A stretch of DNA of 64,000 bases from a virus. The first letter of the stretch is position 1. Every line of letters starts with the position of its first letter. The translations under genes were made by a program, and so were the position numbers. The notes under the pieces are model-generated. The model ran no database searches. It saw only the letters and a list, made by a program, of their open reading frames with translations, and had not been told where the DNA came from. Shown in pieces: positions 4,686 through 43,114 of the stretch. The stretch is taken from positions 1-64,000 of the IMG/VR virus record IMGVR_UViG_3300014501_000002; one strand, given 5' to 3'.

Positions 4686-4958
4686 ATGATTGATCTAACC
4701 CTTGACGACCTCGCGCAACTTGACCACGTAGCATGGGGCTACCTGATCGTCACTTTTCTTTGTCTCATGTTCCATGCCCCTTTAGATATCGTCGTACCGA
4801 TTGCATTCGTCGCGGCCGCCGGTAAAGAGTACTGGGATTGTCACGGGCTCGAGCCTATTGCAGACTCCGGTGGCATCAGCGGTAGTTGGAAAGACTTTAT
4901 ATTCTGGTCCCTGGGAATTCTGATTGGGGCATTTGTGTCACTTTACGTTCGACCATAG
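4686..4958 (+). CDS. Small multi-pass membrane protein
   Basis: Three hydrophobic stretches; H...KEYWD...D pattern. Confidence 0.7.
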   Translation: MIDLTLDDLAQLDHVAWGYLIVTFLCLMFHAPLDIVVPIAFVAAAGKEYWDCHGLEPIADSGGISGSWKDFIFWSLGILIGAFVSLYVRP

Positions 4959-4965
4959 GAGAATT

Positions 4966-5169
4966 ATGATTACAGTCATTATAGCCACAGTAGTAGGTTA
5001 CGTCACCGGGGCATTCACACCGGGTATCGAACGCAAGATCAAAGCTTGGTACACCGCGAAGTCCAAAGCTGTAGTCGTGGCAGTAGTCACGAAGGCGCTA
5101 CCGGCCGCGCCCGCGTCCGTGACATCCGAAGTCGCCAAGGTCGAGGCCGAAGTCAAGGCCATACTTTAG
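4966..5169 (+). CDS. Small membrane-anchored protein
   Basis: AGGAG RBS; N-terminal hydrophobic helix. Confidence 0.7.
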   Translation: MITVIIATVVGYVTGAFTPGIERKIKAWYTAKSKAVVVAVVTKALPAAPASVTSEVAKVEAEVKAIL

Positions 5170-5447: not shown

Positions 5448-6599
5448 ATGCCGTTAAATCAAACGAAAGCGACTGTGGCTGATTGGGGGCGTCTGCGTCT
5501 TAATCCCACGTCACCTTTGTCCCTGCTCAGCTTGTACAACCCCCTGAAGCTCGACCTGTTGCAAGTGGTCGACGAGGGCGGCGACATGTTGCTCAACGTG
5601 ACCTACAAGGGCGTTGTGCAGCTTCTGCCAAACAACCAGACTCCATCCGGCGGCGGCTCCTCATTTGTTACCGGTAAGTTGGGTTTGGCTGGGAACTATG
5701 AACTGTTAGCTGCGGCCGGAATTTCGAACACCGGTAACACGGTGGTCACCGGCGGAAATGTTGGGTCATTCCCCACTCCGTCGATCACAGGCTTCCCTCC
5801 CGGGATCGTTACACCTCCTTTCACGGTCGACAATACCGACGCTGCCGCGGCTCAGTCTGCTGCCCTTGTCGCGTACAACTATTTCACAGGCTTGACATTC
5901 ACGTCATTGAGTGGTTCTTCGGCCAATCTGAGCGTCCTTGGAAACGGATCGACTGCATCGACTTATCTTCCGGGAAACTATTCGTCTGGTTCTAGCATGG
6001 ATATTCCTACGAGCATTACTTTGGATGCTCAAGGAAATCCAAACGCGATGTTCGTGTTCATGGCCGGATCATCGACGATCACTCTTGAGAGCGGAGCATC
6101 TATCCTACTTGTCAATGGTGCACAAGCAGCCAACGTGGTGTGGTTGCCGGGTAGCTCTTTCACATCAGTTTACAACGGCATTTCTTCAGTCATGCAGGGT
6201 AACATTCTCGCGAACACGAGTATCACGCTCGGTGGCGGCGTACTGAATGGTCGTGCGCTCGCAGGCATCGTTACTTCAAGTGGCGCAATTACTATCGCAG
6301 CGGCTGTACTGGCTACTTCGCCAGGCGGCGGTGGCGGTACACCTGTCACCGGTGGATTCTATTCTAGCCAGTGCTTGTTCGGAAAGTACTACACTCGGGT
6401 TGCTGCTACGACCGTGCCACCTCTGACGGCCGCCGCAATATTCGCGGATGTGTTCAGCCAGAATAACCAGCACTACGATATCTTCGATATCATCGGGCAG
6501 GGAGATTCTCCGATTTATCACTTGGACTACTTGGGCGTCGCATATTATGACTCTCCATCGCTTACGTACCAAACTGCGGAAGGTTCGACAAACGTTTAA
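5448..6599 (+). CDS. Putative virion protein with inserted DUF3494 (IBP-1, ice-binding-like) domain
   Basis: LGLAGNYELLAAAGISNTG...AAAAQSAALVAYNY...PGNY...TLDAQGNPNAMFVF...LVNGAQAANVVW...QGNILANTSITL...LNGRALA; Gly-rich linkers on both sides; no signal peptide. Confidence 0.9.
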   Translation: MPLNQTKATVADWGRLRLNPTSPLSLLSLYNPLKLDLLQVVDEGGDMLLNVTYKGVVQLLPNNQTPSGGGSSFVTGKLGLAGNYELLAAAGISNTGNTVVTGGNVGSFPTPSITGFPPGIVTPPFTVDNTDAAAAQSAALVAYNYFTGLTFTSLSGSSANLSVLGNGSTASTYLPGNYSSGSSMDIPTSITLDAQGNPNAMFVFMAGSSTITLESGASILLVNGAQAANVVWLPGSSFTSVYNGISSVMQGNILANTSITLGGGVLNGRALAGIVTSSGAITIAAAVLATSPGGGGGTPVTGGFYSSQCLFGKYYTRVAATTVPPLTAAAIFADVFSQNNQHYDIFDIIGQGDSPIYHLDYLGVAYYDSPSLTYQTAEGSTNV

Positions 6600-6605
6600 C
6601 TCGGT

Positions 6606-6681
6606 TGCGGGGTAGTGCAGCGGTAGCATACCTGCCTCATAAGCACGGTGGTCGTTGGTTCGAATCCAACTCCCGCAACCA
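6606..6681 (+). tRNA. tRNA with CAT anticodon (Met or Ile2)
   Basis: Acceptor TGCGGGG/TCCCGCA, loop CTCATAA, T-arm GTTGG-TTCGAAT-CCAAC, A73 and CCA; irregular anticodon stem. Confidence 0.85.
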
Positions 6682-6699: not shown

Positions 6700-7140
6700 A
6701 TGGCATCCGGCAAGGGCAATAACAACAGCATCCTTTACCTCGGGGCGATTTTCCAGGCAGTGTTTACGGGAGTCCCAAGCTTGCTCGCGAATGCGGGTAG
6801 TCCCTTAACCAACCTCTACGTCAGCTTGTACACAGCGAATCCTGGAGCATCGGGGAACCAGACGTCTAACGAAGCTGCATACACGAGCTACGCTCGCGTG
6901 GCGGTTGCTAGAACAGTCAGCGGATGGTCTATCAGTAGTGAGACAATTGCGAACGTGGCTGCGGTCACCTTCCCGGCTTGCACTGGTGGTACAGAAACAG
7001 AAAATTATGTTGGGATCGGTACGCTCGCGACGCTCGCCGGAAACTTGCTTTGGTTCGGACAGCTTACCACCCCTCTCGCTGTCAGCGCTGGAATTACTCC
7101 ATCATTTGCGATCGGTGCTTTAACGATAACGGAGTCGTAA
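6700..7140 (+). CDS. Small virion structural protein (tail/fibre-associated family)
   Basis: LYVSLYTANPG...NEAAYTSYARVAV...NVAAVTFP...GITPSFAIGALTITE is a common phage structural motif. Confidence 0.8.
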   Translation: MASGKGNNNSILYLGAIFQAVFTGVPSLLANAGSPLTNLYVSLYTANPGASGNQTSNEAAYTSYARVAVARTVSGWSISSETIANVAAVTFPACTGGTETENYVGIGTLATLAGNLLWFGQLTTPLAVSAGITPSFAIGALTITES

Positions 7141-7144
7141 CCCT

Positions 7145-8137
7145 GTGACGATACAGGCGGCCATTACCGGTGTAGGTGTAGTATCCGGAACGCTAGGCGG
7201 GAAAGGATTACTCGCCGATCATATTACAGGAGTCGGCGCCGTCGCCGGAACGTTGGGCGGTCTCGGCAACCTTGCATCAGTCATTGCAGGACACGGTGCG
7301 GTAACAGGAGCGATCTCTACTGCAAACCCCGTGTCTGCCACGATTCATGGATCAGGCTCAGTGCTTGCAGCGCTTTCTGGAACACTGACCGGGAACATGC
7401 TCGGCAACATCTTAGGAATCGGCAGTGTGGTGGGTTTCCCATCATTCACGAAAGAATTTTTTCCACCACGCAATCCAGGTGGGCACGTCAAGAATTACAT
7501 TCTGCGGGATTTCGGTACGATGTATTCCGCTCCCGCATATTTAGCGACTGCTAGTAATGCATTGCAGTTGTTTCACCAAACTACTTTTATTCCCAACGTC
7601 AATCCCGGAACAGTTACACCTCCGCGATGGTCAACTCCGGGAACCCCCGATTCATTTAACTATCAGGGGCGAGTACAGATGCCCGGCGAGGTGATGAGTC
7701 CGCCTGGGACCGGTTCACTCAATGGTAAGATTTACAAAGTCAAAGCTGATGGAATGGTTTTTGTTCCACAGTCGGCGGTCAACGCATCGTTCAACATTGT
7801 CCTGAATCAGAATTACACCTCGTACGGTTACGCAGTTGTTTCAGATACCTTATTCTCTATGACTAGTCAGGTGCCGGTAGCGGCCGGTACTATGGTCGGT
7901 TGGTCTCTGAGTGCAACCTTGGCGGGGAATGGTGTTGGAAACCCGGTGCTAAGTTGCGCAGGCGTTATGTATGTCGACGGTGTTCAGTACGTAGGTAATG
8001 GGTTCTCGAGTCGACTGACTAACCGAGAGCCTATTGTGCAGTTAAGTCTCGGAGTGCAATTCGGTGGAGCGTTAACCGGCCCCGATATGTACCAGGCTTT
8101 CCTCAGCACGTTTCAAATCAGGGAAGATCATTTTTAG
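7145..8137 (+). CDS. Putative virion protein; Gly-rich repeats plus a C-domain paralogous to 18971-19579
   Basis: ITGVGxVxGTL repeats; PGTGSLNGKIYKVKADG resembles PGSNRLNGQVFHILASG. Confidence 0.7.
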   Translation: MTIQAAITGVGVVSGTLGGKGLLADHITGVGAVAGTLGGLGNLASVIAGHGAVTGAISTANPVSATIHGSGSVLAALSGTLTGNMLGNILGIGSVVGFPSFTKEFFPPRNPGGHVKNYILRDFGTMYSAPAYLATASNALQLFHQTTFIPNVNPGTVTPPRWSTPGTPDSFNYQGRVQMPGEVMSPPGTGSLNGKIYKVKADGMVFVPQSAVNASFNIVLNQNYTSYGYAVVSDTLFSMTSQVPVAAGTMVGWSLSATLAGNGVGNPVLSCAGVMYVDGVQYVGNGFSSRLTNREPIVQLSLGVQFGGALTGPDMYQAFLSTFQIREDHF

Positions 8138-8147
8138 ATCGGAACCC

Positions 8148-8909
8148 ATGACAGACTTGTCGCGCGTCACCATAGGTATAAAAACCTTTTTACGCGATGC
8201 GCAACTGTTCAACACTATCGCAGCGATCCGGCAGAGCATGCCGGAGGTGCGCATGATAATCGCGGACGACGGTGAGATGTCTGAAGAGAAGAGGGAAGTT
8301 TATAAGTCCCGAACAGGTTTGATGCACATTTTTCTCCTGCCGTTCGATAGCGGGTTCGGTGCGAAAAGTAACATCATCGCTGGTTGCTGTGGTACCCCGT
8401 ATCTTTTAATTGGGTCAGATGATTTCGATTTTTCTCCAGCACCGGTTCGAGAGGGCATCGAGCGTCTGACTGAAGTATTGGATCATACGCCGCGGCTTAG
8501 TATCGTCAGCGGTCGAGTGAGTAACCGGCCGTACGAGTTCGCTTTGGCTGATGAGGGACATCGAGTTCAGGAGTTCCCCATTGAATATAGCGAAGGTATG
8601 CCTTACTGTCCGTGTGACTTGACGGTGAACTATTCCTTGATTCGGCAAGAAGTATTCCAGAAAGTTAGTTGGGATGACGATGTTAAGATCGGTGGCGGCG
8701 AACACGGCGCATTTTTTGTAGATTGCAAACGCGCGGGTTTCGAAGTAGCGTATGTCCCTGGAGTAAGCATTTCTGAGCAACGAGTTCCTAGCAGTGCGCG
8801 TTACCGGCAGTTTCGCGCGAGAGCTAACAGCCCGGAGCGCCCATGTTTTGATAAGCGCGGCATTACAGAATACATCCTAGGAGATGGCAGAACGGATTAC
8901 AAGAAATGA
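8148..8909 (+). CDS. Glycosyltransferase family 2
   Basis: VTIGIKTFLR...IIADDG...PFDSGFGAKSN...SDDFDF...GGEHGAFF. Confidence 0.88.
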   Translation: MTDLSRVTIGIKTFLRDAQLFNTIAAIRQSMPEVRMIIADDGEMSEEKREVYKSRTGLMHIFLLPFDSGFGAKSNIIAGCCGTPYLLIGSDDFDFSPAPVREGIERLTEVLDHTPRLSIVSGRVSNRPYEFALADEGHRVQEFPIEYSEGMPYCPCDLTVNYSLIRQEVFQKVSWDDDVKIGGGEHGAFFVDCKRAGFEVAYVPGVSISEQRVPSSARYRQFRARANSPERPCFDKRGITEYILGDGRTDYKK

Positions 8910-9574
8910 ACGTCTTGCTTGCTGTCAAGTCATGTCAGCGCGATTTAGATCATGGATGCCACGACATTATTCGCAGCACGTGGGGTAAGGACGTGCACGA
9001 AGCGAACCTTCGGTTCTTCGTCGGTGCCCTCCAGGAGTCAGAGAAGATATCACAAGGCGACGTTTTCTTAAATGTCCCAGATGATTACGACTCCCTGCCT
9101 TTTAAAACGCGTGAGATCTTACGCTGGTCGCTGGTACATAATTACGATTACACTTTTTTGTGCGATACAGATACATTCATTATTCCGAGATTGCTGATGC
9201 GGTGCGGTTTTGAGAAGTACGACATCGCCGCGCGATTTGGTACGATACACCCAGTTGGCGGTCCGATGTTCGACTATACGGACGGCAGAGGCTACCAAGG
9301 GCAGGTTCATCCGTGGCCGAGCGGAGGTTTAGGATACTTCGTATCAAAGAAGGCCGCAGAAATTATTGTGGCCGCTGAAATCAAAGTTTGGGCCGAGGAT
9401 ATGCATGTAGGCCAAGTCTTAGGCGAGCATATTCGAAAAGGCGTGATTTTAGCGCTTGACATTCCCGACTATGAATGCAATACTAGCTGGCACTGGCCCA
9501 GACGGGCTACGGGAAAGGCATACGACCACACGAGCGGATGGATGGAGCGTATGCAGAAAGAACACGGACAATGA
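8906..9574 (+). CDS. GT31-like (beta-1,3-galactosyltransferase-like) glycosyltransferase
   Basis: IRSTWG, DDYDSLPFKT, LCDTDTF (DxD), SGGLGY, AEDMHVG motifs. Confidence 0.85.
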   Translation: MNVLLAVKSCQRDLDHGCHDIIRSTWGKDVHEANLRFFVGALQESEKISQGDVFLNVPDDYDSLPFKTREILRWSLVHNYDYTFLCDTDTFIIPRLLMRCGFEKYDIAARFGTIHPVGGPMFDYTDGRGYQGQVHPWPSGGLGYFVSKKAAEIIVAAEIKVWAEDMHVGQVLGEHIRKGVILALDIPDYECNTSWHWPRRATGKAYDHTSGWMERMQKEHGQ

Positions 9575-10029
9575 GCGTAATTAAATTCAACCTGAAAACA
9601 GTAGAGGGAAGACGGGCATACAACAGGGCGAAGTATATTGCTAATAGAAAGAGGCATAGCGCCCAGATGAAGCTTTGGAGAAAGCGCAATTTTAAAAAAG
9701 TTAAGGTACTCGCAAATAGTTATTACGCAAATAATACAGCCCAGATTCGTCTTCGCATGAGATTGAGAAATGCTAAAAATAAAGCGGAAGTTTTAAGCCA
9801 TTATGGACCGGGTGGGAAACTTCAATGTTCTTGGGATAAATGTAAAGTAGTCGATCCAGATATGCTATCTTTAGATCATATCAAAAATGATGGGGCGGAA
9901 TCTAGACGATCTGGAGAATCTGTCAACGCTTATGGTTATGTAAGAAAACATAATTACCCTTCGGGATATCAAACCCTGTGCCACAACCACCAGTGGAAGA
10001 AGGAATTAATTCGCCGGAGAGCCATGTGA
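9571..10029 (+). CDS. HNH-type homing endonuclease (free-standing)
   Basis: LSLDHIKNDG...YQTLCHNHQ; AT-rich; 4-nt overlaps with both neighbours. Confidence 0.8.
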   Translation: MSVIKFNLKTVEGRRAYNRAKYIANRKRHSAQMKLWRKRNFKKVKVLANSYYANNTAQIRLRMRLRNAKNKAEVLSHYGPGGKLQCSWDKCKVVDPDMLSLDHIKNDGAESRRSGESVNAYGYVRKHNYPSGYQTLCHNHQWKKELIRRRAM

Positions 10030-10868
10030 ACGCAATACTCTTAATCGCGACTGGCTCGATGTATTGGGGTTTTGCGAAAAACCTGATAGTGTCTGCTAGG
10101 CAATATTTCATTCCGCATGATGTGATTTTATTTACAGACAGTCCAGAGCGGTTCGATGTCGCGCACAAGATCGTTATACCTAGTGCCGGATACCCGGAGG
10201 CAACATTAAAACGGTACCACACGTTTCTAGACCAGCGGAGTATTCTAGATCGATACGAAACATTATGGTACGTAGACGCAGATATGAAATTCGTCTACCC
10301 AGTTACGGAAGCGGACGTACTGTCCGATGGGATCACGGCAACGCTCCATCCCGGCTTCGCGGTGGATAGAATACATCCGACCGTCGGCTTTGTAAGCAAA
10401 GTCGGTACTCCGGAGAGACGGAGAGAGTGTACAGCGTTCATTCCGGAGACCGCACAGAGTCTGTATTTCTGCGGCGGATTTAACGGTGGTCGCGCAGAGA
10501 GTTATTTGTGCATGGCCGAGAAGATTCGAGAAAATATTGACATCGATGCAGCGGGCGGCATCATCGCTCACTGGCATGATGAGTCTCACCTGAACCGATA
10601 TCTGTATGACAATCCACCGGCTAGAATTTTGTCGCCGTCGTTTTGTTATCCTGAAGGATACGATGGTGGGTACGGTTGGCCTATAAATGGGCATCGTCCA
10701 ATTCTCCTAGCGCTGAATAAGCCGGGCCATTATGAACCGTCACATTATGTGCCGGAGCCGCTTGTAGCAGTTCAACCGACTCCCGCAATGCCAGCGCGTC
10801 GAGGCGTGGTTCCCGGATCGAAGTCTCGTATACGCTCGGCAATGCAGAAAGGAAACAGATGGTCGTAA
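10026..10868 (+). CDS. Glycosyltransferase family 6 (ABO-type alpha-1,3-GalNAc/Gal transferase)
   Basis: IATGxxY, FTD, VDADM (DxD), LHPGF, ERR, YFCGGFNGG, WHDESHLNRY; GTG start at 10026. Confidence 0.93.
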   Translation: MNAILLIATGSMYWGFAKNLIVSARQYFIPHDVILFTDSPERFDVAHKIVIPSAGYPEATLKRYHTFLDQRSILDRYETLWYVDADMKFVYPVTEADVLSDGITATLHPGFAVDRIHPTVGFVSKVGTPERRRECTAFIPETAQSLYFCGGFNGGRAESYLCMAEKIRENIDIDAAGGIIAHWHDESHLNRYLYDNPPARILSPSFCYPEGYDGGYGWPINGHRPILLALNKPGHYEPSHYVPEPLVAVQPTPAMPARRGVVPGSKSRIRSAMQKGNRWS

Positions 10869-11635
10869 TTAAACTTCTCGGCGGGTTGGGCAATCAGTTG
10901 TTCCAACGCGCGTACGGATTCGCGTTGCATCATCGCGGTTATAATGTCGCGTTCGATAAGTCGGCGTTAATAGAAGGGACACATCGCGAATATTCACTCG
11001 GCGCCTTTAACATGGATGTTTCATTCTCCGAACCAGTCGGGCCGATTGTTTATGAGTCGGGTCTTCAGTTTAACTGGCAGAACCTTCATCCCGCGGACCC
11101 GAGCACAATCGTGGGGTACTTTCAGACTGAGAAGTATTTCCAAGATATCGCGAATTTAATACGAGTGGAATTCACGTTGACCGGTGAGCCTTCTGAACAC
11201 GCGCAAGACTTACGAAGACAGATCAATAATTGCAACAGCATATTTCTTCACGTGCGTCGTCAAGATTACGTTGGCCTACAGCACTTCCATGGTATGCCAG
11301 ATATGGCATATTATAAAGAGGCGCTCGCGCTGATTCAGTCGTATTACGTGGACTCTAAAGTGTTCGTGTTCTCCGACGATCGCGAATGGTGTCTACAGAA
11401 CTTCATGGGGTACGACGTCGTTCAAGGTACAAGCAAGTATGAAGATTTGTGGCTCATGGCTCAGTGTCAACATGCGGTCATTGCGAATTCATCGTTCTCA
11501 TGGTGGGGTGCCTGGCTTGGCGATTGGGGTGATAGCAAATCGCGTCGCATAGTCGTCGCACCGAAACAATGGTTTAATCCGGCAGCAAATGTGGACGCGT
11601 CAGACATCGTCCCGGAAAGATGGCTCAGAATATGA
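10859..11635 (+). CDS. Glycosyltransferase family 11 (alpha-1,2-fucosyl/colitosyltransferase)
   Basis: GGLGNQLFQ, GYFQTEKYF, HVRRQDY, FSDD, ANSSFSWWGAWL. Confidence 0.95.
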   Translation: MVVIKLLGGLGNQLFQRAYGFALHHRGYNVAFDKSALIEGTHREYSLGAFNMDVSFSEPVGPIVYESGLQFNWQNLHPADPSTIVGYFQTEKYFQDIANLIRVEFTLTGEPSEHAQDLRRQINNCNSIFLHVRRQDYVGLQHFHGMPDMAYYKEALALIQSYYVDSKVFVFSDDREWCLQNFMGYDVVQGTSKYEDLWLMAQCQHAVIANSSFSWWGAWLGDWGDSKSRRIVVAPKQWFNPAANVDASDIVPERWLRI

Positions 11636-13197
11636 TCGTCCAAGCATTCGTTCCAAATTGGCCCGGCCCGAAGCAACACGCTAAGGAAGTCGCCGCGATC
11701 ATCGCGCCGCACTGCCCGGTCACAATTCTGGACGACCCGAACGATTACTTTAACGCGCAGTGGGAGAAGGCCCGCGCACAGTTCACGGGAGATATCTTGT
11801 TGTGGGTTATGGCGGATGTGAAACCTCCGCTCGATTTTGGCGCCATGTTCGAGGAAGGCGTACGCTTAATGTCTCGCGCTCCCGTGGGTTGGTATGCCCC
11901 GGACGTTGCCTGGACAAGCTATATTTATGACCCGCAGAATCTATCTCGGGTCGAGGAACATATCTACGAAGTTCCGAATACAGATTCGTTGTGTTTCATG
12001 ATTCGTAAAGATGTGATTGACAACATGCCACACCTCGATCCTGCCACGTGTTTCATGTGGGGTATGGATTTGACGGCGATCGGCACCGCGCGTCTGATGG
12101 GTTTAAAAGTTGTTCGCGACTATCGGTTCAAGGCGCAGCATCCAAACCAGACGGGTTACGAGATTGAGAAGGCGGGACGCGGCATGATCCCTATGTTTAA
12201 GACGTACCCGATTGCGTTGCAGCGGGAGATTGGTAAGCTTGAAATCGAGACGCGTCGGTTACGCAAGCCGTTTTGGAAAGACAAGCGAATCACAGTCACC
12301 GGCGGCAATGGCTTCCTAGGGAACCACGTCGTCGCAGCGCTGCATAGCAAAGGTGCAGAAGTATCGGTTCCGCATCTCGTAGAGTATGACTTACGAAACC
12401 GTGCAGATGTGGATCGCATGTATCAGAATTTTCGCCCGACTATCGTCATTAACTTAGCCGCGGCTGTTGGTGGACTCGGCGCGAACATCGCGAGTCCGGG
12501 TCGTTTCTTTTACGACAATCTTATGATGGGCATGCATCTCATGGATGCGGGCTGTCAATTCGGTATAGACAAGTTTGTGCAGATGGGCAGCGCGTGTGAG
12601 TATCCGAAAGACGCGCCGGTTCCATTGGTAGAGGAAGATGTTTGGAACGGGTACCCCGAGCCCAGCAACGCTCCGTACGGCATCGCTAAGCGCGCGCTGT
12701 TGACCATGGGGGACGCCTACAGAACACAGTACGGCATGAATGTAATACACATTCTCTCGACCAATCTTTACGGGCCGGGAGACAACTTCAATCTTGAAAC
12801 GTCGCATGTTATTTCCGCGCTGATAAACAAGTGTGTCACGGCGAGAGACGCGGGCTCCCCAAGCATTTCGATATGGGGCACTGGCGCTGCCACGCGCGAC
12901 TTCTTGTTTGTGCGGGACGCGGCATCAGGAATAGTTCTTTCGACAGAGTTATGGAATAATCCGGCGCCGGTCAATTTAGGTTCCGGTAGGGAAGTATCGA
13001 TACTCGAGATTGCAGAGAAGATAAAACAGCTGACCGGTTTTCAAGGCGCGCTGTCATGGGACCACTCGAAACCAGACGGGCAGCCGCGCAGATTTCTCGA
13101 CACGAGTCGAGCGTTATCGTTTGGATTCGTATCCGGTACGCCCCTAGAAGCTGGGCTGAAAGAAACTATTTCGTGTTTCGAAGAAAAATTGCGATGA
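11632..13197 (+). CDS. fcl: Fusion: N-terminal GT-A-like domain plus GDP-L-fucose/colitose synthase (Fcl/ColC-like epimerase-reductase)
   Basis: C-domain has TGGNGFLG, AAAVGGLGAN, GSACEYP, YGIAK, NLYGPGDNF, SHV and WGTG...RDFL. The ~215-aa N-domain (ADV, WGMD motifs) is only tentatively GT-like. Confidence 0.88.
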   Translation: MIVQAFVPNWPGPKQHAKEVAAIIAPHCPVTILDDPNDYFNAQWEKARAQFTGDILLWVMADVKPPLDFGAMFEEGVRLMSRAPVGWYAPDVAWTSYIYDPQNLSRVEEHIYEVPNTDSLCFMIRKDVIDNMPHLDPATCFMWGMDLTAIGTARLMGLKVVRDYRFKAQHPNQTGYEIEKAGRGMIPMFKTYPIALQREIGKLEIETRRLRKPFWKDKRITVTGGNGFLGNHVVAALHSKGAEVSVPHLVEYDLRNRADVDRMYQNFRPTIVINLAAAVGGLGANIASPGRFFYDNLMMGMHLMDAGCQFGIDKFVQMGSACEYPKDAPVPLVEEDVWNGYPEPSNAPYGIAKRALLTMGDAYRTQYGMNVIHILSTNLYGPGDNFNLETSHVISALINKCVTARDAGSPSISIWGTGAATRDFLFVRDAASGIVLSTELWNNPAPVNLGSGREVSILEIAEKIKQLTGFQGALSWDHSKPDGQPRRFLDTSRALSFGFVSGTPLEAGLKETISCFEEKLR

Positions 13198-13724
13198 AAA
13201 ACTTCTATGTGTATCTCTGGCTTAGAGAAGACAACACTCCTTATTACGTGGGTAAGGGTAGTGGGAATAGGGCTTACATTAGACATCGCGTTGGGCGATG
13301 CCCAGAAGGCCGAGTATTAATTCGGGATTGTTTTAGCGAGAAAGAAGCGTTTGAGATGGAGAAGTTTTTAATCGAGCTTTACGGTAGGAAGGATTTAGGA
13401 ACGGGCTGCCTTAGAAATTATTCATCAGGAGGCATCGGCGGATCGGCAAACCCGTCAGAAGAAGTCCGTTATAAGATGGGCGCGGCTAGAAGAGGGGTTG
13501 CGCCGTCCGCATCAACTCGTCGTAAGATAAGTTGTGCTAATGCGGGAAGGAAACATCCACATAAGTCTCATCCAGTTTCACAAGAAACCCGCAGTAAAAT
13601 AAGTAAGTATAGAAAGGGTCGCGAAAATTCTTACGCAACGCGAATTAAAATGAGCGACGCTAAAAAAGGTAAGCCGTGGTCGGAAGCAAGGTGGCGGGCT
13701 GAGCGTGAAAGGTTATCCCAATGA
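13194..13724 (+). CDS. GIY-YIG homing endonuclease with NUMOD3-like repeats
   Basis: FYVYLW...PYYVGKG...R...E...GRKDLGTGCLRN; ETRSKIS repeats. Confidence 0.85.
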   Translation: MKNFYVYLWLREDNTPYYVGKGSGNRAYIRHRVGRCPEGRVLIRDCFSEKEAFEMEKFLIELYGRKDLGTGCLRNYSSGGIGGSANPSEEVRYKMGAARRGVAPSASTRRKISCANAGRKHPHKSHPVSQETRSKISKYRKGRENSYATRIKMSDAKKGKPWSEARWRAERERLSQ

Positions 13725-14905
13725 GAAAAATCACGTTGGGACATTTGGACATTTCGGAGCGTGGTAAGGCCTACGTCAACGACGCCCTGGACCACAACCG
13801 ATTGTCGCGAGGCCCGTATACGGATAGATTCGAGAGCGAGTTTTCTCGGCTGCACGGATGCAAGCACGGTCTGTTTATGAACAGCGGCACGTCGGCGCTT
13901 CAAGTAGCGCTGGTCGCGTTGAAAGAAGTTCACGGTTACGCGGACGGAGACGAAGTTATCGTCCCGGCCACGACATTCATTGCGACAAGTAACATCGTGA
14001 TCCAGAACAACCTTACGCCGGTGTTCGTAGATGTCGACCCGTTTACGTTCAACATCGACCCTAGAAAGATCGAAGAGAAGCTTACATCGAAGACGCGGTG
14101 CATTATCCCGGTTCATTTGTTCGGGTTGCCCGCGGAGATGAAGTGGATTAGAGATATAGCAAAGCATCGGGGCCTTCAGATTATTGAGGATTCCTGTGAG
14201 ACTATGTTCGCTACTTTAGACGGACAGTCAGTCGGAAGTTTTGGGGACATCGGCTGCTTTAGTACATATGTGGCCCATTTAATTGTGGGCGGTGTGGGCG
14301 GACTCGTTACGACCAATGACCCTAAACTGAACGAGATTTGCAAGAGCCTGATGCAGCACGGTCGGGATAGCATTTATACGAACATAGACCAGGACGACAA
14401 CGCGGACGACGCACTGCTTAAACAGATGATCGAGCGCCGCTACTCGTTCGAGCGTGTAGGATACTCTTACCGTGCGACGGAACTCGAAGCCGCAGTCGCT
14501 CTGAGCGAACTCGAACGCTGGGAAGAGAATATTGGGCGCCGCAGGTTTTCCGCCGCCCGCCTGACGGACTTATTAAAAGATTTGAGCGGTGTACTGCAGC
14601 TGCCAGTAACGCCAGTTGGGTTCGAACACTCTTACATGATGTTCCCAATGGTGTTCTACGAAGGCTACGAGCGCAATCCATTTTTATGGTATCTTGAGAA
14701 GAACGGTATTGAGACTCGTTACCTGTTCCCGTTGCTGACGCAGCCGGTGTACAGGACGTTGTTCCCTGGACAAGCGGAGAAGTATCCCATAGCGCAGTAC
14801 CTCGCTGAGCACGGATTTTTTATCGGCATGCATCAGGGACTCTTAACAGAAGATATTGAATACATCTCAGAAGTAATCCACGACTATTTCAAAAAGAGTA
14901 AATAA
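13721..14905 (+). CDS. DegT/DnrJ/EryC1/StrS PLP enzyme, ColD-like (His at the catalytic Lys position)
   Basis: NSGTSAL, PATTFIAT, PVHLFG, IEDSCE; FSTYVAHLIVGGVGG instead of FSFxxxKxxTTGEGG. Confidence 0.9.
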   Translation: MRKITLGHLDISERGKAYVNDALDHNRLSRGPYTDRFESEFSRLHGCKHGLFMNSGTSALQVALVALKEVHGYADGDEVIVPATTFIATSNIVIQNNLTPVFVDVDPFTFNIDPRKIEEKLTSKTRCIIPVHLFGLPAEMKWIRDIAKHRGLQIIEDSCETMFATLDGQSVGSFGDIGCFSTYVAHLIVGGVGGLVTTNDPKLNEICKSLMQHGRDSIYTNIDQDDNADDALLKQMIERRYSFERVGYSYRATELEAAVALSELERWEENIGRRRFSAARLTDLLKDLSGVLQLPVTPVGFEHSYMMFPMVFYEGYERNPFLWYLEKNGIETRYLFPLLTQPVYRTLFPGQAEKYPIAQYLAEHGFFIGMHQGLLTEDIEYISEVIHDYFKKSK

Positions 14906-15777
14906 TGGCTAAGGTGTCAGTTATCGTACCCCTCTACAATCAAGCCAAGTTCGTCACGCAGACATTGGATAGTATCATGGCGCAGACGTACGAAGACTTC
15001 GAAGTGATTGTGGTGAACGACGCCAGTACGGATGATAGTTTATCCGTTGTCACTGAGTACGCGAAGAACTTCCAGAAGATAAAGATTGTCAACAATCCTG
15101 TCAACCGTGGATTACCCGCCACACGAAATATCGCTATAAGTCATTCGGTAGGGGATTTCATACTTCCATTGGATTCAGATGACCGGATCGATCCGGACTT
15201 TCTGCAGAAGACGACGGCGCGGATGGTCGACGGAGTCGCGATAGTCGGAACGTGGATGCACATCGAGCCCGATGATATCACTCGACGTAACTCGCATGAG
15301 GTTCAGCAGGCCGGTGCATTCGGGTCGTGCTATCCAATCTACGCGCCCACGCGTGAGCAGATTCTAACCGGCAATAGTTTGGCTATATGCTCTTTGATTC
15401 GCCGCGAAGCCCTCGACCAGGCGGGCCAGTATCCAGAAGATTTTAAGAATGGTTCCGAGGATTGGTGTTTGTGGTGCTCGATCATATGCAGCGGTAGATG
15501 GAGAGTAGTGGTGGTTCCGGAGTATCTGTTTCATTATAGAGTCCATCCGGATTCTATGTGCCGGTCATCCACGATGGCCCCGTTCCCGGTGACACGAGCC
15601 CGCATCAGAACTAAGTTTGGTTGGACGGTTGAAGAGGCCGCGCGAGAGCAAGAGCGGTTGAATCCGAAGCCTATCCCGCCGCCCCCGCAGCCACCTCCCG
15701 GAATTTATCGAGTGAGTGATAGAGAACGTTTTCGAGCCCAACTCAAGGCGTACAAAGAGAAATACAATGTCCAATGA
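14905..15777 (+). CDS. Glycosyltransferase family 2
   Basis: VSVIVPLYN, VNDASTD, NRGLPATRN, LDSDD, SEDW. Confidence 0.93.
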   Translation: MAKVSVIVPLYNQAKFVTQTLDSIMAQTYEDFEVIVVNDASTDDSLSVVTEYAKNFQKIKIVNNPVNRGLPATRNIAISHSVGDFILPLDSDDRIDPDFLQKTTARMVDGVAIVGTWMHIEPDDITRRNSHEVQQAGAFGSCYPIYAPTREQILTGNSLAICSLIRREALDQAGQYPEDFKNGSEDWCLWCSIICSGRWRVVVVPEYLFHYRVHPDSMCRSSTMAPFPVTRARIRTKFGWTVEEAAREQERLNPKPIPPPPQPPPGIYRVSDRERFRAQLKAYKEKYNVQ

Positions 15778-16486
15778 TGTCGTTCAAGGATTATGGATCG
15801 GCGGCGATCTATCAAACATGGAGCGGTTGTCCATTAACTCATTTTTACAGAACGGACACGAGTACCATCTTTATATATACGATGAATTAGGGCACATTCC
15901 TGACGGCGTAATTGTTAAGGACGCCAACGAAATTATAGACGGGAAGGATATCTTCCTAGTTCGCGGAGGGTATTCAAGCTTCTCGGATTTCTTTCGTTGG
16001 AAGTTGGTGCTAGATCGTGGCAACTGGTGGGTGGACACGGATGCTGTGTGTTTACGGCCGTTGGATTTCATATCAGATCATGTGTTCATCGGTGGAAAAG
16101 GTTTGCCCGGCTCGGATGATTGTATCACGAGCGGGTTGTTTAAAGCGCCCGCGCAGTCAGAGATTATGAAGTGGGGTTGGGAACAGTGTCAGAAAATGAA
16201 TCCACTGACGATGGCGTGGGGCCAAGCTGGCCCGCCGCTGTTTACCGAGGCCGTGCACAAGTTCGGTTTGTCAGTTGGAGCCACCGTCGTTCCGGGTAGC
16301 TTATTCTTCCCGGTGTTTTACACGAAGGCGCCCGGCGCATTCATCGGTCCGAATACATCAGATGATTATGGCAACGCGTATTCCGTGCATCTGTTCAATG
16401 AAATTTGGCGCTTGGCTGGGACCGACAAGAATGCGGTCTACCCAAATACGTCCGCGTACGAAAAACTAAAGAAGAGGTTCCAATGA
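15767..16486 (+). CDS. GT32-like DxD glycosyltransferase (alpha-1,4/1,6 type)
   Basis: LWIG, SINSF, FSDFFRW, GNWWVDTD, GP.LFT. Confidence 0.85.
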   Translation: MSNDVVQGLWIGGDLSNMERLSINSFLQNGHEYHLYIYDELGHIPDGVIVKDANEIIDGKDIFLVRGGYSSFSDFFRWKLVLDRGNWWVDTDAVCLRPLDFISDHVFIGGKGLPGSDDCITSGLFKAPAQSEIMKWGWEQCQKMNPLTMAWGQAGPPLFTEAVHKFGLSVGATVVPGSLFFPVFYTKAPGAFIGPNTSDDYGNAYSVHLFNEIWRLAGTDKNAVYPNTSAYEKLKKRFQ

Positions 16487-17157
16487 TCGGAACGCTTTAT
16501 AGATACGCGCATCCTTACGATTCAGCCCAATTTCTTTATTGTGGGCAGGGGTCAGATAGAGATAGGCATCATCGTTCTGGACACAGTTCATTTGGGCGAC
16601 GTTTTAAAGAGAAATTTCCCGATATAGAATTACCAGAACCTATAAGAGAACAAATCGAGGTTTCTTCTCCGATAGATTTAAACGAGGAAGAAACAATTTG
16701 GATTTTTCGATATCATACGTGGTGGCGGTATCCAAATGGAATGAATATAACTTTACCTGGTTCGGTCGACTATAAAAGTCAGGGTCTTATTACCGGTCGT
16801 CTAAATGCTAAAAATGGGCGTATGCAGAGAATTTCTACTCCGGAAACCTGTGCTAAAGGCGGTCGAATCGGCGGTCGCAGAAGAATAGAATTGCACGGCA
16901 ACCCACTGACGCCTGAGAGTTGTGCGAAAGGCGGTCGCATAACAGGCCGCATAAATGGGCGTAGGGCTTTTGAGAATAACACAGGAATATTCGCTTTAGA
17001 TTTCGATATAAACGCAGCTAGATGTAAAGCTGGACGCAAGAATTTCGAGAGTGGACACATGAAAAATCTCGGGAATTCAGGAATAGGTCTCTGTTTTCGA
17101 TGGAATATTAAACGTGGGAAACCTTGTGTTTGCGGTAAACACGGGAGAAAGGCGTAA
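16483..17157 (+). CDS. Divergent GIY-YIG-like homing endonuclease
   Basis: GTLYRY...FLYCGQG...R..H; NGMN; TPETCAKGGRI repeats; Cys-rich tail; AT-rich. Confidence 0.65.
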   Translation: MIGTLYRYAHPYDSAQFLYCGQGSDRDRHHRSGHSSFGRRFKEKFPDIELPEPIREQIEVSSPIDLNEEETIWIFRYHTWWRYPNGMNITLPGSVDYKSQGLITGRLNAKNGRMQRISTPETCAKGGRIGGRRRIELHGNPLTPESCAKGGRITGRINGRRAFENNTGIFALDFDINAARCKAGRKNFESGHMKNLGNSGIGLCFRWNIKRGKPCVCGKHGRKA

Positions 17158-17160
17158 GAA

Positions 17161-38330: not shown

Positions 38331-39050
38331 ATGTACACACTTCAGCAAACGATCAACTGGGCACGGACGTTCATCCAATACTCGCCTTTGACTGCGGGAA
38401 TAGGAAACGAACCCGCGATATCCATTGCGAACATGGTGTTGGATACAGTCACATCCGCGCCGATCACATGGCCGTGGAACCGCGCGGAATATACGGGGTT
38501 GACACTGACCGCCAATATACAGGACTACAACGTAGTTCCGATCACAGATTTCAATTTTCTTGAGGTGGTTAGTTTGAAGACTGTGGACGGTAAGTACTCG
38601 TACGAATTGAAGGATGTGTACAACACGAATATTCTCGGTGTGTCAGTCTCCGCACCGGCGCAACCCAAAGCGGTCGCGGTTAAGTTTTTTACTTATGGGG
38701 TAAGTGTCGCGCTTAGGTTCTTGAGCATTCCGGATCAGAATTACGCCGCGACCATAACGTATCAGAAGGTTATTACACCGTTCACTCTCCTGACGCAAGC
38801 ATGGCCCATTCCGGATCAGTACCTCGATATTTACAACAACCTTTTTCTTGCAGAAGCGTTTCAGTCGGTCGACGATGATCAGCAAGCTGCGCGGTATCGT
38901 ATGCGTGGCATCGCGGCATTGTTGTCGAAGGCGGAAGGCCTCAGCGAAATGCAGCGCAACGCATTCCTTGCTCAGTATCTCGCTCGTGAGAGTCAATCGC
39001 AAACTAATGTATCACGTACGCAACAGGGTCAGCAGGCCCGCGGAGTATAA
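38331..39050 (+). CDS. Head-tail adaptor (tail tubular A-like)
   Basis: TLQ...WPWN...IQDY...PDQNY...Y...IPDQY; precedes the nozzle-like gene. Confidence 0.72.
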   Translation: MYTLQQTINWARTFIQYSPLTAGIGNEPAISIANMVLDTVTSAPITWPWNRAEYTGLTLTANIQDYNVVPITDFNFLEVVSLKTVDGKYSYELKDVYNTNILGVSVSAPAQPKAVAVKFFTYGVSVALRFLSIPDQNYAATITYQKVITPFTLLTQAWPIPDQYLDIYNNLFLAEAFQSVDDDQQAARYRMRGIAALLSKAEGLSEMQRNAFLAQYLARESQSQTNVSRTQQGQQARGV

Positions 39051-42000
39051 TGCCTAATTTACTCGAGCAATCCGGAGCGCAACCACAGAAACAACCGAAG
39101 TTTGCGCCGCTTTTCATTGATAAAGCGTTTACCGGAATTTATACACAGCGCTCGGTGCTGCACGATCCTTCTGATTTAGCTACGTCGAGATTTTATGGCG
39201 GTCGTCCAGATGCTTTATGGCAGGGTTCGAACGTTGAACTAACGAATCGACTCACTTTGCAACGGCGCCCCGGCTTGTCGGAATTCTCTACAGTGACTTA
39301 TCCGACGCCTCCAGATCGCGGCTTCTCGTTCCAACTTCTCGACGGAACCATTCGCGTAATCATTGACACCGAATCCACCGGTGCTTTGAGCGTCACATCG
39401 GTTGCTACTTCTGTCGGCGGTAATGCGGTATATACCGGCACGTTCCCCGGAGGTGTGGGGAACACGTATGTCGGCATGAAGTTCACCGTTTCCGGATTCG
39501 TGGGTGCCGGTTCCGATTCAATATACACCGCCGTAGCTTCAACTGGCACAACCATCACTTTGAACAACCCGCACGCCACCGCGGAGACCGCAGCTGCGAG
39601 TATGGTGTCTTCAGGCGCCGTGTATTGGGATCAGCAGAACGGTTCGAAAACTTTGATATTCGCGAAAGGCACCGGCGCTGGACAGACTTATTTCGTTGCC
39701 GTCGCGGGCATTCTTTACATGGGCGATGGGGTCGAGACTTTTATCTATACGCCACTGAATCCGAACGCAATCGCATACGGATTCGGTTTGGTCGCGCCGG
39801 TCAATGGGCCGACGATTACCACCACAGAGTCAGCTGCTAGTGCGGTCGCATGGCAGGCGCACACATATTTTACCACGATGGGTTTGATCGTCGACTCTAA
39901 CGGAAACATTGAGCAATTATCCGGAGTCAACGCAGACGGAACTAACCCGACACTGCGATTCGGCACGAGTAGCAACGGACAACCTCCATGGAACCAAGCG
40001 ACCGGCGGAACAACTGCGGATGGTTCGGTCACATGGACCAACCAAGGCCCGATCGGCACGTGGGCTCCTAAGACGACATATCAGCCTGGTCAAGCCATCT
40101 ATGATCCGGGAACTAAGTGCGTGTTTATTCAGACGCACAATTTCGCGGCTACTTCTGGACCCTCGGCGCCACAGTGGAACCCAGCCCTTGTATCCACGGG
40201 CGCTCGCACGAGTGAACTGAACGCAGGCGGCGCAACCGCCGCGCGTTGGGGTAGCCTCGGACAATTGAACGTCACACCTACGTTGCTTAGATCGTGGACC
40301 GCCGGAGAGACGTACGGAACGTATGTCGAGCCGAGTACTGGAAACGATCCGAACGTATTGAATTGCGCGACGATTGAGCCCACACTTATTCTTCCTCCAC
40401 TTGCCGGGCAGAATGTTTACCTGCAAGGTGCGACTACCGGCGGCGTGACCGGAACCGGCGCGACTCCTCCTCCGTGGCAAACAGCTATCGGTCAGACGAC
40501 TACAGACGGCCAATTGACCTGGACAATGCTCGGTTCGGCGACATGGACTGCGCTCACTTCTTACACTGCATGGGTTTCTGGAGCAAACACCTTTTCGGTA
40601 ATTGAAGATACGAACGGCAACTTGCAAGTTTGCATGGCGAGTGGGATCAGCGGTCCTACTATCCCTGCAGCGTGGGGAACTACTTATGGTGCAACTACTT
40701 TGGATGGCTCCGGCACTTCTCAGATTACTTGGGTGTGCGTTGGTGCAGCAATTGCATGGGCTGCGAATACGATTTGGTATCTTCCGCTAGCTGGTTTCGT
40801 TCCTCCAAGCAAGAACCAACCTTACGGCAGCGCGTCTGTCATTGATACTCAGGGTGATCTTGAGTATGTGATTTCATCGGGTGAGTCAGGTTCTGTAACT
40901 CCGGCGTGGCAAGCGATCGGTTTCAATACGACTGATAACACGATTACGTGGTACAACTCGGGCGTCGCGCAGACCAACTCACTCGCGTGGACCCAAGGCT
41001 ACTCGTACGCATATTCATACTACAGTCGAACGACCACAGATTTCTACGACACCAATCCTCCTCCGGGACTCAACCTGATATATCCCGCGGGACTCGGCCA
41101 GCCAACTGGCTCCGAGACAGGTGCGATCAGCACTGCGTCACCCGCGACTGTAATCGGCGGCCCAAACACCGGCGCGATTAACACGGTTAGTGGGATCAGT
41201 TCACTTGATCCGGCCGTGGACACAATCATCATCTGGCGCTCGGCGGACGGCGGCGGATCGGACAACATGTTCTTCCTGACCGAGATTCCGAACCCTCTTC
41301 CGAACGGCGGACAACCCGTTGTGTGGCACTTCCAAGATTATCTCCCCGACGTAGCTATAGGAGTATTCCAAGGTTTGAACAACCTCATTCCGGCTCCGAT
41401 TGATGATGAGAATGATCCTCCTCCGAATAATTTCTTGCCGATGACGTATAACTTCCAACGTATTTGGGGAGCGTCCGGTAGCAGTGTGGTGTTCTCAGGC
41501 GGTCCTGATGTCATCACCGGAAACGCGAACTTCGCGTTCAACCCATCCGATACTTTCCCATACCTTGCGGACGTTATACGTATCGTAAAAACGTCTACGG
41601 GGCAGGTTGTGTTCTTGACTGACAGCATTGAGTTCTTGGCCGGGGGTCCGTTAACTGCGTCGTTCTACTCCGTGACACTCGGGCCGGGCATCGGACTTCG
41701 CTCATTCAATGCGCTCGATGTGTACGCAGGAGAAATTTATTTCGTATCATCTGACGGGCAATTCCGCGTAATCAATCCGTCTCTTAACATTTCTAACGCA
41801 GGATTCCCGATCGGAGATCAACTTGCCGTATTGAATACATCGAAAATTTATGTCGCGGTTCAACAGGCCGGTGTAGACAACGCAATTTACGTCGCGGATG
41901 GAAGTACTGGGTGGTGGCGTTGTAATCCACACCAAGTTCCCGGAAGCGCAAATGGTCCGGAGCCTATTTGGAGTCCGTTCGCGAATATCACCAACGGATG

Positions 42001-43114
42001 TCAGATGGTGCAGAGCATCGAAATTACTCCGGGCATCAAGAAGCTTCTCGTGGGTGGCGTCGGTGATAACGAGAATATATTATTCCGCGATTTGACTGTG
42101 TACACGGATGGGGTGGTAGTGTTAAACCCGTCGCCGATTAACTTGCTAACAACTTCTACATACGGTGTCCTGGCAGGTAGCACAATCACTAATTCCGGGA
42201 CAACTACCATCAATGGAGACTTAGGGTTGAGCCCGGGAAGCGCTGTCACGGGTGCTCCAGTAGTTACGGGCGCGACGAACATCGATAACCCAGCAGCGGT
42301 TCAGGCTCAGACGGATTTGGTCACGGCATACAATCAAGCCGCGGCTTTCCCAGGGGCTGTTACGATACCGACAGAATTAGGTGGGACGACTCTTCCACCC
42401 GGAGTTTATTCAAGTCTGTCTGGAACGTTCAGTATCACGACGGGGACGTTAACTCTCGATGCTGCAGGTAATCCAAACGCGTTCTGGATTTTTAAAACTG
42501 CGACTACGTTGGTGTTGGGCACGGGTACTTCGGTATCTTTGATAAATAAAGCGCAATCCCTTAACGTGTTCTGGCAAGTTGGTAGTTCCGCTACGATCGG
42601 GGTAGGCGCCGTGTTCCAAGGAACCATCCTTGCACTTACGTCTATTTCTGTAAATACCGGAGCGATACTGACTGGAAGATTGTTGGCTCAAACCGGTGCA
42701 GTGACATTGCTGGGTAACACTATCACCACGCCTAGCTCAACTGTTACCGGGCAGTACGACGCCTACTTTGTCATGGGTAGCATTATGCTCGCGCACCCAG
42801 GACAGATAGCCGTGCTCGGATTTATCGAAGGCGATTTCTCCGGAGTTGCGTATCAACCTCAAGTTGGTTTCTTACTGAACGAGATAGCGGGTTCGTTCGT
42901 GAACATGCCGCTTAAGCCTCAGTTCGATCCTCCGACAATTTACGGAGATACGATTGCGCCGACGTCATATTCTCCTAATCGGTATTATTTCGCTGCAACG
43001 GGTACACTCGCGCGCTGTCGTCACCTTCAGATTAAGGTCGATTTCGGAATTACCCCGAACGGTGACGAGCTTTATAACCTCACCATCTTTGGGCGGGTCT
43101 TCGTGGAAAATTAG
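39050..43114 (+). CDS. Tail nozzle/stabilisation-like protein with Trp-rich repeats and an inserted DUF3494 ice-binding-like domain (~42135-42735)
   Basis: NV....LTLQRRPG N-terminus and RCRHLQIKVDF C-terminus fit P22 gp10/T7 gp12-like nozzles. Clear IBP-1 motifs: YGVLAGSTITNSG, AVQAQTDLVTAYN, LPPGVY, TLDAAGNPNAFWIF, NVFWQVGSSAT, GRLLAQTGAVTL. Confidence 0.85.
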   Translation: MPNLLEQSGAQPQKQPKFAPLFIDKAFTGIYTQRSVLHDPSDLATSRFYGGRPDALWQGSNVELTNRLTLQRRPGLSEFSTVTYPTPPDRGFSFQLLDGTIRVIIDTESTGALSVTSVATSVGGNAVYTGTFPGGVGNTYVGMKFTVSGFVGAGSDSIYTAVASTGTTITLNNPHATAETAAASMVSSGAVYWDQQNGSKTLIFAKGTGAGQTYFVAVAGILYMGDGVETFIYTPLNPNAIAYGFGLVAPVNGPTITTTESAASAVAWQAHTYFTTMGLIVDSNGNIEQLSGVNADGTNPTLRFGTSSNGQPPWNQATGGTTADGSVTWTNQGPIGTWAPKTTYQPGQAIYDPGTKCVFIQTHNFAATSGPSAPQWNPALVSTGARTSELNAGGATAARWGSLGQLNVTPTLLRSWTAGETYGTYVEPSTGNDPNVLNCATIEPTLILPPLAGQNVYLQGATTGGVTGTGATPPPWQTAIGQTTTDGQLTWTMLGSATWTALTSYTAWVSGANTFSVIEDTNGNLQVCMASGISGPTIPAAWGTTYGATTLDGSGTSQITWVCVGAAIAWAANTIWYLPLAGFVPPSKNQPYGSASVIDTQGDLEYVISSGESGSVTPAWQAIGFNTTDNTITWYNSGVAQTNSLAWTQGYSYAYSYYSRTTTDFYDTNPPPGLNLIYPAGLGQPTGSETGAISTASPATVIGGPNTGAINTVSGISSLDPAVDTIIIWRSADGGGSDNMFFLTEIPNPLPNGGQPVVWHFQDYLPDVAIGVFQGLNNLIPAPIDDENDPPPNNFLPMTYNFQRIWGASGSSVVFSGGPDVITGNANFAFNPSDTFPYLADVIRIVKTSTGQVVFLTDSIEFLAGGPLTASFYSVTLGPGIGLRSFNALDVYAGEIYFVSSDGQFRVINPSLNISNAGFPIGDQLAVLNTSKIYVAVQQAGVDNAIYVADGSTGWWRCNPHQVPGSANGPEPIWSPFANITNGCQMVQSIEITPGIKKLLVGGVGDNENILFRDLTVYTDGVVVLNPSPINLLTTSTYGVLAGSTITNSGTTTINGDLGLSPGSAVTGAPVVTGATNIDNPAAVQAQTDLVTAYNQAAAFPGAVTIPTELGGTTLPPGVYSSLSGTFSITTGTLTLDAAGNPNAFWIFKTATTLVLGTGTSVSLINKAQSLNVFWQVGSSATIGVGAVFQGTILALTSISVNTGAILTGRLLAQTGAVTLLGNTITTPSSTVTGQYDAYFVMGSIMLAHPGQIAVLGFIEGDFSGVAYQPQVGFLLNEIAGSFVNMPLKPQFDPPTIYGDTIAPTSYSPNRYYFAATGTLARCRHLQIKVDFGITPNGDELYNLTIFGRVFVEN

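Follow-up and report, generated by a model that had tools for sequence, protein, structure and literature searches.

A two-repeat phage protein module split by a DUF3494 domain in an uncultured soil podophage

Accessory and decoration proteins of phages, such as Hoc of T4 and pb10 of T5, combine a conserved part that binds the particle with Ig-like or lectin domains that they display. The DUF3494 domain, in turn, is the main microbial ice-binding fold. Its published members include substrate binders besides ice binders, as well as proteins from temperate organisms (PMC12337378), and in PMC11645318 the final coil of the fold is described as adjoining the initial coil. No description of DUF3494 in a phage was found in the full-text literature that we searched, and tblastn did not find the domain in 50,697 GenBank phage records. 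Here we describe gene 5448..6599 (plus strand) in a 64,000-nucleotide stretch of DNA, positions 1 to 64,000 of IMG/VR record IMGVR_UViG_3300014501_000002 (hereafter the window). The record as a whole, 111,514 bp long and bounded by direct terminal repeats, represents a complete virus genome, and the virus is an uncultured soil podophage. The gene encodes a 383-aa protein in which a small two-repeat module of ~120 aa, which we name RR and whose halves we call R1 and R2, is split at its inter-repeat loop by a complete DUF3494 domain, joined via flexible Gly/Ser/Pro linkers. Modular surface-display proteins are already known from phages; what is new is an undescribed carrier, together with a fold that lacks a phage report in the literature searched. 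More specifically, we define RR as a module, show that it is internally duplicated, describe its stand-alone forms, its other fusions and the insertion loop that they have in common, and reject a single duplication as the source of the two DUF3494 domains in this genome.

A duplicated carrier interrupted by DUF3494

The reading frame runs from an ATG start to a TAA stop in the order R1, linker, DUF3494, linker, R2, all on the plus strand. Its start codon is supported by 16 full-length homologues (55-76% identity) that share an MP..QT opening. The R1 profile matches at 5532..5624 (aa 29-59, within a wider N-flank of aa 1-61), the DUF3494 beta-solenoid domain of IBP-1 (ice-binding protein) type occupies 5658..6338 (profile envelope aa 71-297, Pfam match aa 87-275), and the R2 profile matches at 6369..6548 (aa 308-367). 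A variable C-terminal tail at 6549..6596 (aa 368-383) is missing from about half of the family. An earlier sequence-only reading of the locus had placed an IBP-like domain between the linkers PSGGGSS and SPGGGGGTP, and both are present, at 5643..5663 (aa 66-72) and 6318..6344 (aa 291-299), around an unmistakable PF11999 match. The linkers are the most variable columns of the family alignment, differing in both length and sequence among homologues. Proteins of R1-IBP-R2 architecture make up at least 17 clusters at 55-76% identity, an established family and not an event in this genome.

The same reading held that the two flanks resemble each other, through a motif found at nt 5550-5618 in R1 and nt 6474-6542 in R2, and that the domain sits between two repeats of a small protein. 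Both statements are borne out, by indirect means: a direct BLASTP of the N-flank against the C-flank gives no alignment, and the relationship becomes visible only with profiles and through relatives. In BLASTP, the N-flank (aa 32-68) and the C-flank (aa ~311-367) both match the C-terminal pair of a set of ~355-aa proteins (alignment A2) that consist of an N-terminal DUF3494 domain and two tandem units. A search among shorter proteins with the A2 pair then found insert-free RR proteins of 118-128 aa, made solely of the two units. Profile A4, built from 15 RR sequences that are either stand-alone or contiguous, has two matches in the window ORF, either side of the insert (profile positions 32-75 at nt 5544-5672, E 1.2e-6; positions 70-119 at nt 6378-6542, E 5.8e-9), and none elsewhere in the genome. 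Comparison of the window family's two flanks with hhalign gives a probability of 81% (E 1.2e-5), and that of R1 with R2 from the stand-alone relatives a probability of 95.9% (E 6e-9), with a score of 43.6 against 9.9 +/- 2.4 (maximum 17.5) in 100 column shuffles. Judged from these profile comparisons, R1 and R2 are homologous to each other, and the insertion point of DUF3494 is the loop between them. Each repeat is ~55 aa long, with a predicted strand-helix-hairpin-strand order. Chance similarity of the flanks, in favour of which the empty BLASTP might be cited, is refuted by the profile matches on both sides and by the existence of contiguous R1-R2 homologues.

As a phage module RR had not been described before, and it serves as a carrier. 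HMMER, run exhaustively over 1.84 billion cluster representatives, returned 141 RR representatives at E <= 1e-3, about half of which are 105-140 aa long. On the 67 longer members the partners include Laminin_G_3 (a ConA-like lectin domain, ten cases), CarboxypepD_reg (transthyretin-like, six) and SdrD_B (four), with SpaA, CHB_HEX_C_1, Fn3_assoc and Pentaxin as further fusion partners, and RR is usually C-terminal in these fusions. Across all proteins retrieved in this analysis, the R-R arrangement, alone or behind other domains, is the most frequent (131 proteins: 59 R1-R2, 37 R2-R2, 25 R2-R1 and 10 R1-R1, the two labels blurring in diverged members), followed by IBP-R1-R2 (32), R-IBP-R (25) and a single IBP-R1-X-R2. 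The carrier can take domains, then, either at its N-terminus or in its inter-repeat loop. In the IBP-R1-X-R2 protein (P0046, 591 aa, L013:5977-7752), segment X of ~240 aa occupies the same inter-repeat loop as the window's DUF3494 domain, and has weak atlas leads to small domains that decorate phage tail proteins (E1_FCCH-type, TM < 0.5).

By sequence and predicted fold, the inserted domain is a clear member of PF11999. The Ice_binding model matches aa 87-275 (E 3.1e-33), scoring 115.6 bits where the cut-off is 28.7, and 199 of its 208 positions are covered. In an AlphaFold2 model of the 383-aa protein, built from a 17-sequence alignment, the DUF3494 core has a pLDDT of 80-94 and a helix at 132-147. 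As in IBP-1 proteins, the family cut-off is passed and the predicted model is a beta-solenoid with a long alpha-helix alongside. All of the top 31 Foldseek matches of this model in the Protein Data Bank (PDB) are DUF3494 ice-binding proteins. The best is AnpIBP (7BWX; TM 0.85, rmsd 2.5 A, 31% identity), and EfcIBP (6EIO; TM 0.76) is among the best matches; identity to this pair is 31-32%, and phmmer gives E 2.6e-19 for AnpIBP and 5.7e-19 for EfcIBP. A secretion signal or surface anchor, usual in cellular DUF3494 members, is absent here on hydropathy: as the sequence-only reading had it, no hydrophobic N-terminal segment was found in the first 75 aa, where the 15-residue Kyte-Doolittle mean reaches a maximum of 1.0.

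The whole protein is maintained. In the comparison of the window with the related virus locus L003, dN/dS is ~0.08-0.10 alike in R1, the DUF3494 domain and R2, with dS saturated, and all three parts are under purifying selection, which agrees with the earlier suggestion that selection acts on this gene. Pattern scans of GTDB genomes yielded no close cellular relative of the 383-aa protein as a whole, only DUF3494 domains 30-40% identical to its own.

Separate origins of the two DUF3494 copies and exchange of the cassette

The virus record holds exactly two DUF3494 domains. The second (42167..42727, plus strand; E 1.8e-55) forms aa 1040-1226 of p1354, a 1354-aa tail protein encoded by ORF 39050..43114. 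The sequence-only reading regarded the two copies as divergent, which their 38% identity confirms, and proposed that they represent two separate captures, to be examined by a phylogeny of both domains. In a maximum-likelihood tree of 112 DUF3494 domains, the copies fall into different clades, A and B, split by long, fully supported branches (100*/99*). Clade A comprises the 5.4-kb copy and every domain from 26 IMG/VR loci, except a long-branched domain of L026 that lies beside clade B. Clade B comprises the 42-kb copy, its orthologue P0151 (with a protein of 1362 aa in its cluster) and the wide range of DUF3494 domains that a search with the 42-kb copy brought in, the named members of which are bacterial (Streptomyces, Verrucomicrobiae, Dehalococcoidia).

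That both domains match the same Pfam family could be taken to mean that one duplication gave rise to the pair. The tree does not support this, and an approximately unbiased (AU) test in which the window's two copies are forced together rejects their sisterhood (delta lnL 215, p 4e-140). Each domain is, moreover, much closer to relatives elsewhere (82-83% and 74-76% identity, respectively) than to the other copy. A single duplication is thereby refuted, and we regard it, along with chance similarity of the flanks, as exceedingly improbable. Because the AU test rejects forced sisterhood, the sequence evidence indicates separate origins for the genome's two DUF3494 domains.

The separateness proposed earlier thus stands, while the idea of capture needs revision, since there was no recent uptake from a host, the cassette was found here on virus contigs only and the protein belongs to a family of many clusters. 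Identity among the domains of the virus loci is 54-82%, and that of the window domain to the DUF3494 domains of Acidobacteriaceae-family genomes at most 47%, so that, on these identities, the window domain was not recently taken from a host. The latter figure comes from 201 genomes in the family of an Acidobacteriaceae metagenome-assembled genome, 35 of which have DUF3494, the best being 47% identical to the window domain; two of these genomes, G004 and G027, have not been published, and nothing claimed here depends on them.

The clade A cassette lineage was found in this analysis on virus contigs only, where its carriers are diverse: RR in three topologies, a homologue of the protein p239, a homologue of p1354 at two sites, and several proteins of 1200-2100 aa. 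The cassette of L010:5458-7515 interrupts the p239 homologue between aa 120 and 124, and the p1354 homologue of the same phage is without it. In L014:2986-7278 it is found at aa ~951 of the p1354 homologue, while in L027:2173-7065 it occupies about the same p1354 site as in the window, but belongs to clade A and not to clade B. Exchange has also occurred within the same carrier, as judged from the tree and the identities, because the R-IBP-R domains do not form one clade (AU p 1.3e-7, for a group named after seeing the tree) and because the window domain is 82% identical to those of the non-RR proteins P0019, P0020 and L005, above most of its own architectural family. The DUF3494 cassette has in this way been written into several different probable particle proteins of uncultured soil podophages. 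L020:5908-7925 carries two adjacent DUF3494 genes, IBP-R1-R2 followed by a 319-aa DUF3494 protein without RR, whose domains belong to different subclades.

A putative particle anchor and its possible ligands

We consider it probable, though well short of assured, that RR is a particle-docking anchor and DUF3494 one of several interchangeable, outward-facing binding domains. RR would be the constant part that docks on the particle, at either head or tail, because the conserved part of modular phage proteins normally contacts the particle and the variable part faces outward. The DUF3494 solenoid would be the exposed binding domain, exchangeable with other domains on RR; this role is suggested by the other RR partners, which are typical extracellular glycan-binding or Ig-like domains. 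Attachment to the particle is further suggested because these proteins have no signal peptide, and so would not be exported on their own, and because large tail proteins of related phages contain the same cassette as an integral part. Gene context speaks for it too, with a gp80-type fibre gene as the neighbour in the window and, in L028, an IBP-RR gene placed straight after four fibre-like genes. The geometry of the fold may explain how such a cassette spreads: because its final coil adjoins its initial coil, DUF3494 could be inserted into loops of many carriers via two short linkers, dropping into a surface loop without disturbing the carrier. The flat face of the solenoid would then hold the virion to an extended regular surface.

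Several observations weigh against the anchor reading. RR matches no Pfam family and no PDB sequence, and its best match in PHROGs has E 0.014. The RR model gives at best E 0.017 with TM 0.22 against BFVD, and a best Z of 3.0 against 48,161 PDB chains (VIA-align), none of it above noise, in searches where the moderate quality of the model makes misses possible; in the ESM Atlas every score was below 0.9. The monomer models of RR are themselves moderate (pLDDT 62 for the stand-alone form and below 60 for the flanks in the full protein, with values for RR and the flanks spanning ~30-75). RR was not found by tblastn in the 50,697 GenBank phage records searched for DUF3494, so that no cultured phage with an RR gene turned up among them. 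The closest cultured phage, Tunturiibacter phage Tunturi_3 (PP885686.1, L040; portal 36% identical over 81%), is without RR and without DUF3494. Stand-alone RR genes have neighbours that are not clearly structural, among them a trypsin-like peptidase, a histidine phosphatase and small membrane proteins, and a gp80-type fibre gene adjoins only in the R-IBP-R clade.

The lack of a structural-family match for RR, together with the peptidase, phosphatase and small membrane proteins beside its stand-alone genes and the small predicted membrane proteins just upstream of the window gene (4686-5169), could also be read in terms of a non-structural, soluble protein. RR would in that case be an oligomerisation or partner-binding module of a cytoplasmic protein that is released at lysis, and that might cover debris, neighbouring cells or exopolysaccharide, or keep the ice around them from recrystallising. 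Yet extracellular binding domains of lectin, Ig or solenoid type without a signal peptide, in the late region of a lytic phage, point most simply to a virion component, and the same cassette is found inside bona fide large tail proteins of related phages. The R-IBP-R clade gene is, furthermore, co-oriented with and adjoining fibre genes, and in L028 the IBP-RR gene directly follows four fibre-like genes. We therefore judge a soluble protein to be distinctly unlikely.

A similarly low probability attaches to the possibility that RR is itself an intertwined fibre or stalk element, such as a trimeric beta-hairpin knot, which would make the protein a short stand-alone fibre with DUF3494 heads. The poor monomer model is what would be expected of an obligate oligomer, and there are weak VIA-align rows for a phage hyaluronidase (6WV2, Z 2.2), the C-terminal domain of the T5 fibre (5AQ5, Z 2.0) and the Bd2439 fibre (8OL4, Z 2.5), with a weak ESM Atlas feature match to a HylP-domain cluster (0.85). 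However, all of these scores lie within noise (Z <= 3, atlas < 0.9), a stand-alone protein of 120 aa is short for a fibre, and RR is mostly C-terminal while fibre anchors are usually N-terminal.

If RR does serve as an anchor, the question becomes what the exposed domain holds on to. We consider host exopolysaccharide, capsule or another regular surface a more likely ligand than ice, because RR has lectin-type partners and DUF3494 itself includes substrate binders (PMC12337378). A virion that binds ice through the DUF3494 face, and so adsorbs to ice grain boundaries or brine veins in seasonally frozen soil or is protected during freeze-thaw, is a minority option, kept live by the affinity of this phage group to tundra and peat. 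Tunturi_3 is a 97.6-kb podovirus of 51.3% GC, isolated from Arctic tundra soil on a psychrotolerant acidobacterium, and its metagenomic kin include phages from the permafrost peat of Stordalen Mire (PMC11924767). The closest solved relatives of the domain (AnpIBP 7BWX, EfcIBP 6EIO and the Cryosericum IBPs) have all been proven to bind ice, the domain itself is intact and subject to purifying selection, and the presence of two DUF3494 domains of different origin in one genome suggests selection for the function itself. Set against this, identity to proven ice binders is only ~30%, the ice-binding face of DUF3494 has no diagnostic sequence motif, and the family also holds substrate binders and members from temperate organisms (PMC12337378). 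The lectin-like and Ig-like alternatives on RR point to glycan adhesion, and relatives of Tunturi-type phages occur in temperate and tropical soils too. That soil podophages of Acidobacteria build ice-binding particles, displaying the DUF3494 cassette lineage on both the RR anchor and the tail, we hold to be unlikely.

Should the ice reading nevertheless be true, an ice-binding function would have been assigned to a virus particle for the first time, and RR would be a new plug-in anchor family for phage surface display. Virions would adsorb to ice surfaces or brine veins during freezing, where their hosts concentrate, or would survive freeze-thaw. More generally, if the carrier is a virion anchor, it offers a natural display scaffold that tolerates a 230-aa insert, and a way to learn how phages attach to the slime of their hosts, or to ice, in soils that freeze and thaw, a setting in which knowledge of the interactions between virions and their environment is close to nil.

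Genomic setting and comparison with known systems

The window carries a large terminase gene (22671-24557), an SU10-type portal gene (24706-26862) and fibre-like genes. The host is probably a member of the Acidobacteriaceae within the Acidobacteria, as is suggested by Tunturi_3 being the nearest cultured relative. In nine related virus contigs, whose portals are 58-67% identical, stand-alone RR genes lie 4-5 kb upstream of the terminase gene. Downstream of the fibre genes near the 383-aa gene, an island at 8148-18847 encodes glycosyltransferases and sugar-nucleotide enzymes, with Pfam matches to GT2 (two genes), a galactosyltransferase, GT6, GT11, a GT-epimerase fusion, a DegT-type enzyme and GDP-mannose 4,6-dehydratase (Gmd). 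Much of this island is kept in L003 and L006-L008, straight after the fibre genes. The sequence-only reading had combined the island with the DUF3494 domains into a glycosylated, ice-binding particle, but no finding of the analysis ties the island to the 383-aa protein.

Immediately 3' of the gene, a tRNA-Met (CAT; 6606..6681, plus strand) begins six bases past the stop codon. In L003 the corresponding place is taken by a gene of HNH/endonuclease VII type (L003:7192-7911; phrog_1035, E 8.5e-16), and the junction is a hotspot for mobile inserts. Next on the plus strand is a 146-aa chain-like tail fibre monomer of GP4 gp80 type (6700..7140; PF23140, E 1.1e-21; PDB 8JOU chain a, E 5.8e-5), and then a 330-aa protein, p330 (7145..8137), whose first ~100 aa comprise five Gly-rich repeats of 20 aa. 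These repeats follow an I.G.G.V.G.L pattern, and their BLOSUM autocorrelation peaks at lag 20. The repetition exists at the protein level only, with no DNA-level repeat detected in the gene by Tandem Repeats Finder, and p330 matches nothing in the PDB or in Pfam. The GP4 fibre has five gp80 dimers threaded on a rope protein with a gene of its own (PMC13730344), which makes p330, by analogy, a candidate for the rope of a chain-like fibre. The order of IBP gene, gp80-like gene, p330 and glycosyltransferases is kept in L003 and L006-L008.

Two small overlapping ORFs of 90 and 81 aa with hydrophobic segments lie at 4686-5169, just upstream of the 383-aa gene. The 90-aa ORF is 88% identical in L003, neither has a PHROG match, and they may encode membrane or lysis-type proteins. 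Further into the window, at 33256-36069, three consecutive proteins of 278, 456 and 184 aa have an N-terminal module of ~45 aa in common, and each of them matches one and the same pair of places in L019 and L028. The one of 456 aa has matches among tail-fibre PHROGs, and the trio looks like a set of alternative fibres on one common anchor.

Among known systems, the chain-like fibres of GP4 and A1002 (PDB 8JOU; PMC13730344) are approached by the neighbouring genes, the gp80-like 6700-7140 and the candidate rope gene 7145-8137, rather than by RR. A two-repeat RR could in principle clamp a strand as a gp80 dimer does; the analogy goes no further in sequence or gene order, since RR is unlike the gp80-like protein and stand-alone RR genes are not beside gp80-like genes in the loci read. 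RR as a gp80-type fibre unit was rejected, given an hhalign probability of 0.2% for A4 against the window's gp80-like protein and the lack of any match of PF23140 to the 383-aa protein. In L035, two genes of 146 and 310 aa that lie downstream of a stand-alone RR were likewise tested as gp80-like or rope-like and rejected.

With the single-domain, capless AnpIBP (7BWX/7BWY) and EfcIBP (6EIO), the window domain shares the Pfam family and, in its predicted model, a discontinuous beta-solenoid braced by one long helix. Those known proteins come from fungi and bacteria adapted to cold, are secreted as proteins on their own and have had their ice activity measured, whereas the window domain lacks a signal peptide, lies within a phage protein and belongs to a lineage seen here only on virus contigs. 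Hoc and pb10 follow a like logic to the one that we propose for RR, in which a conserved small module carries variable outward-facing domains, is dispensable in relatives and is shuffled between phages. They have no detectable sequence or fold similarity to RR, which differs further in that its carrier is internally duplicated and takes inserts in the inter-repeat loop, and in that its particle binding is putative. The ice-binding fold of the Marinomonas primoryensis protein MpIBP is an RTX-type solenoid and differs from DUF3494. Even so, MpIBP, a bacterial cell-surface protein and not a phage protein, provides a precedent for an ice- or surface-binding module placed as the adhesin tip on a larger modular carrier (PMC5550230).

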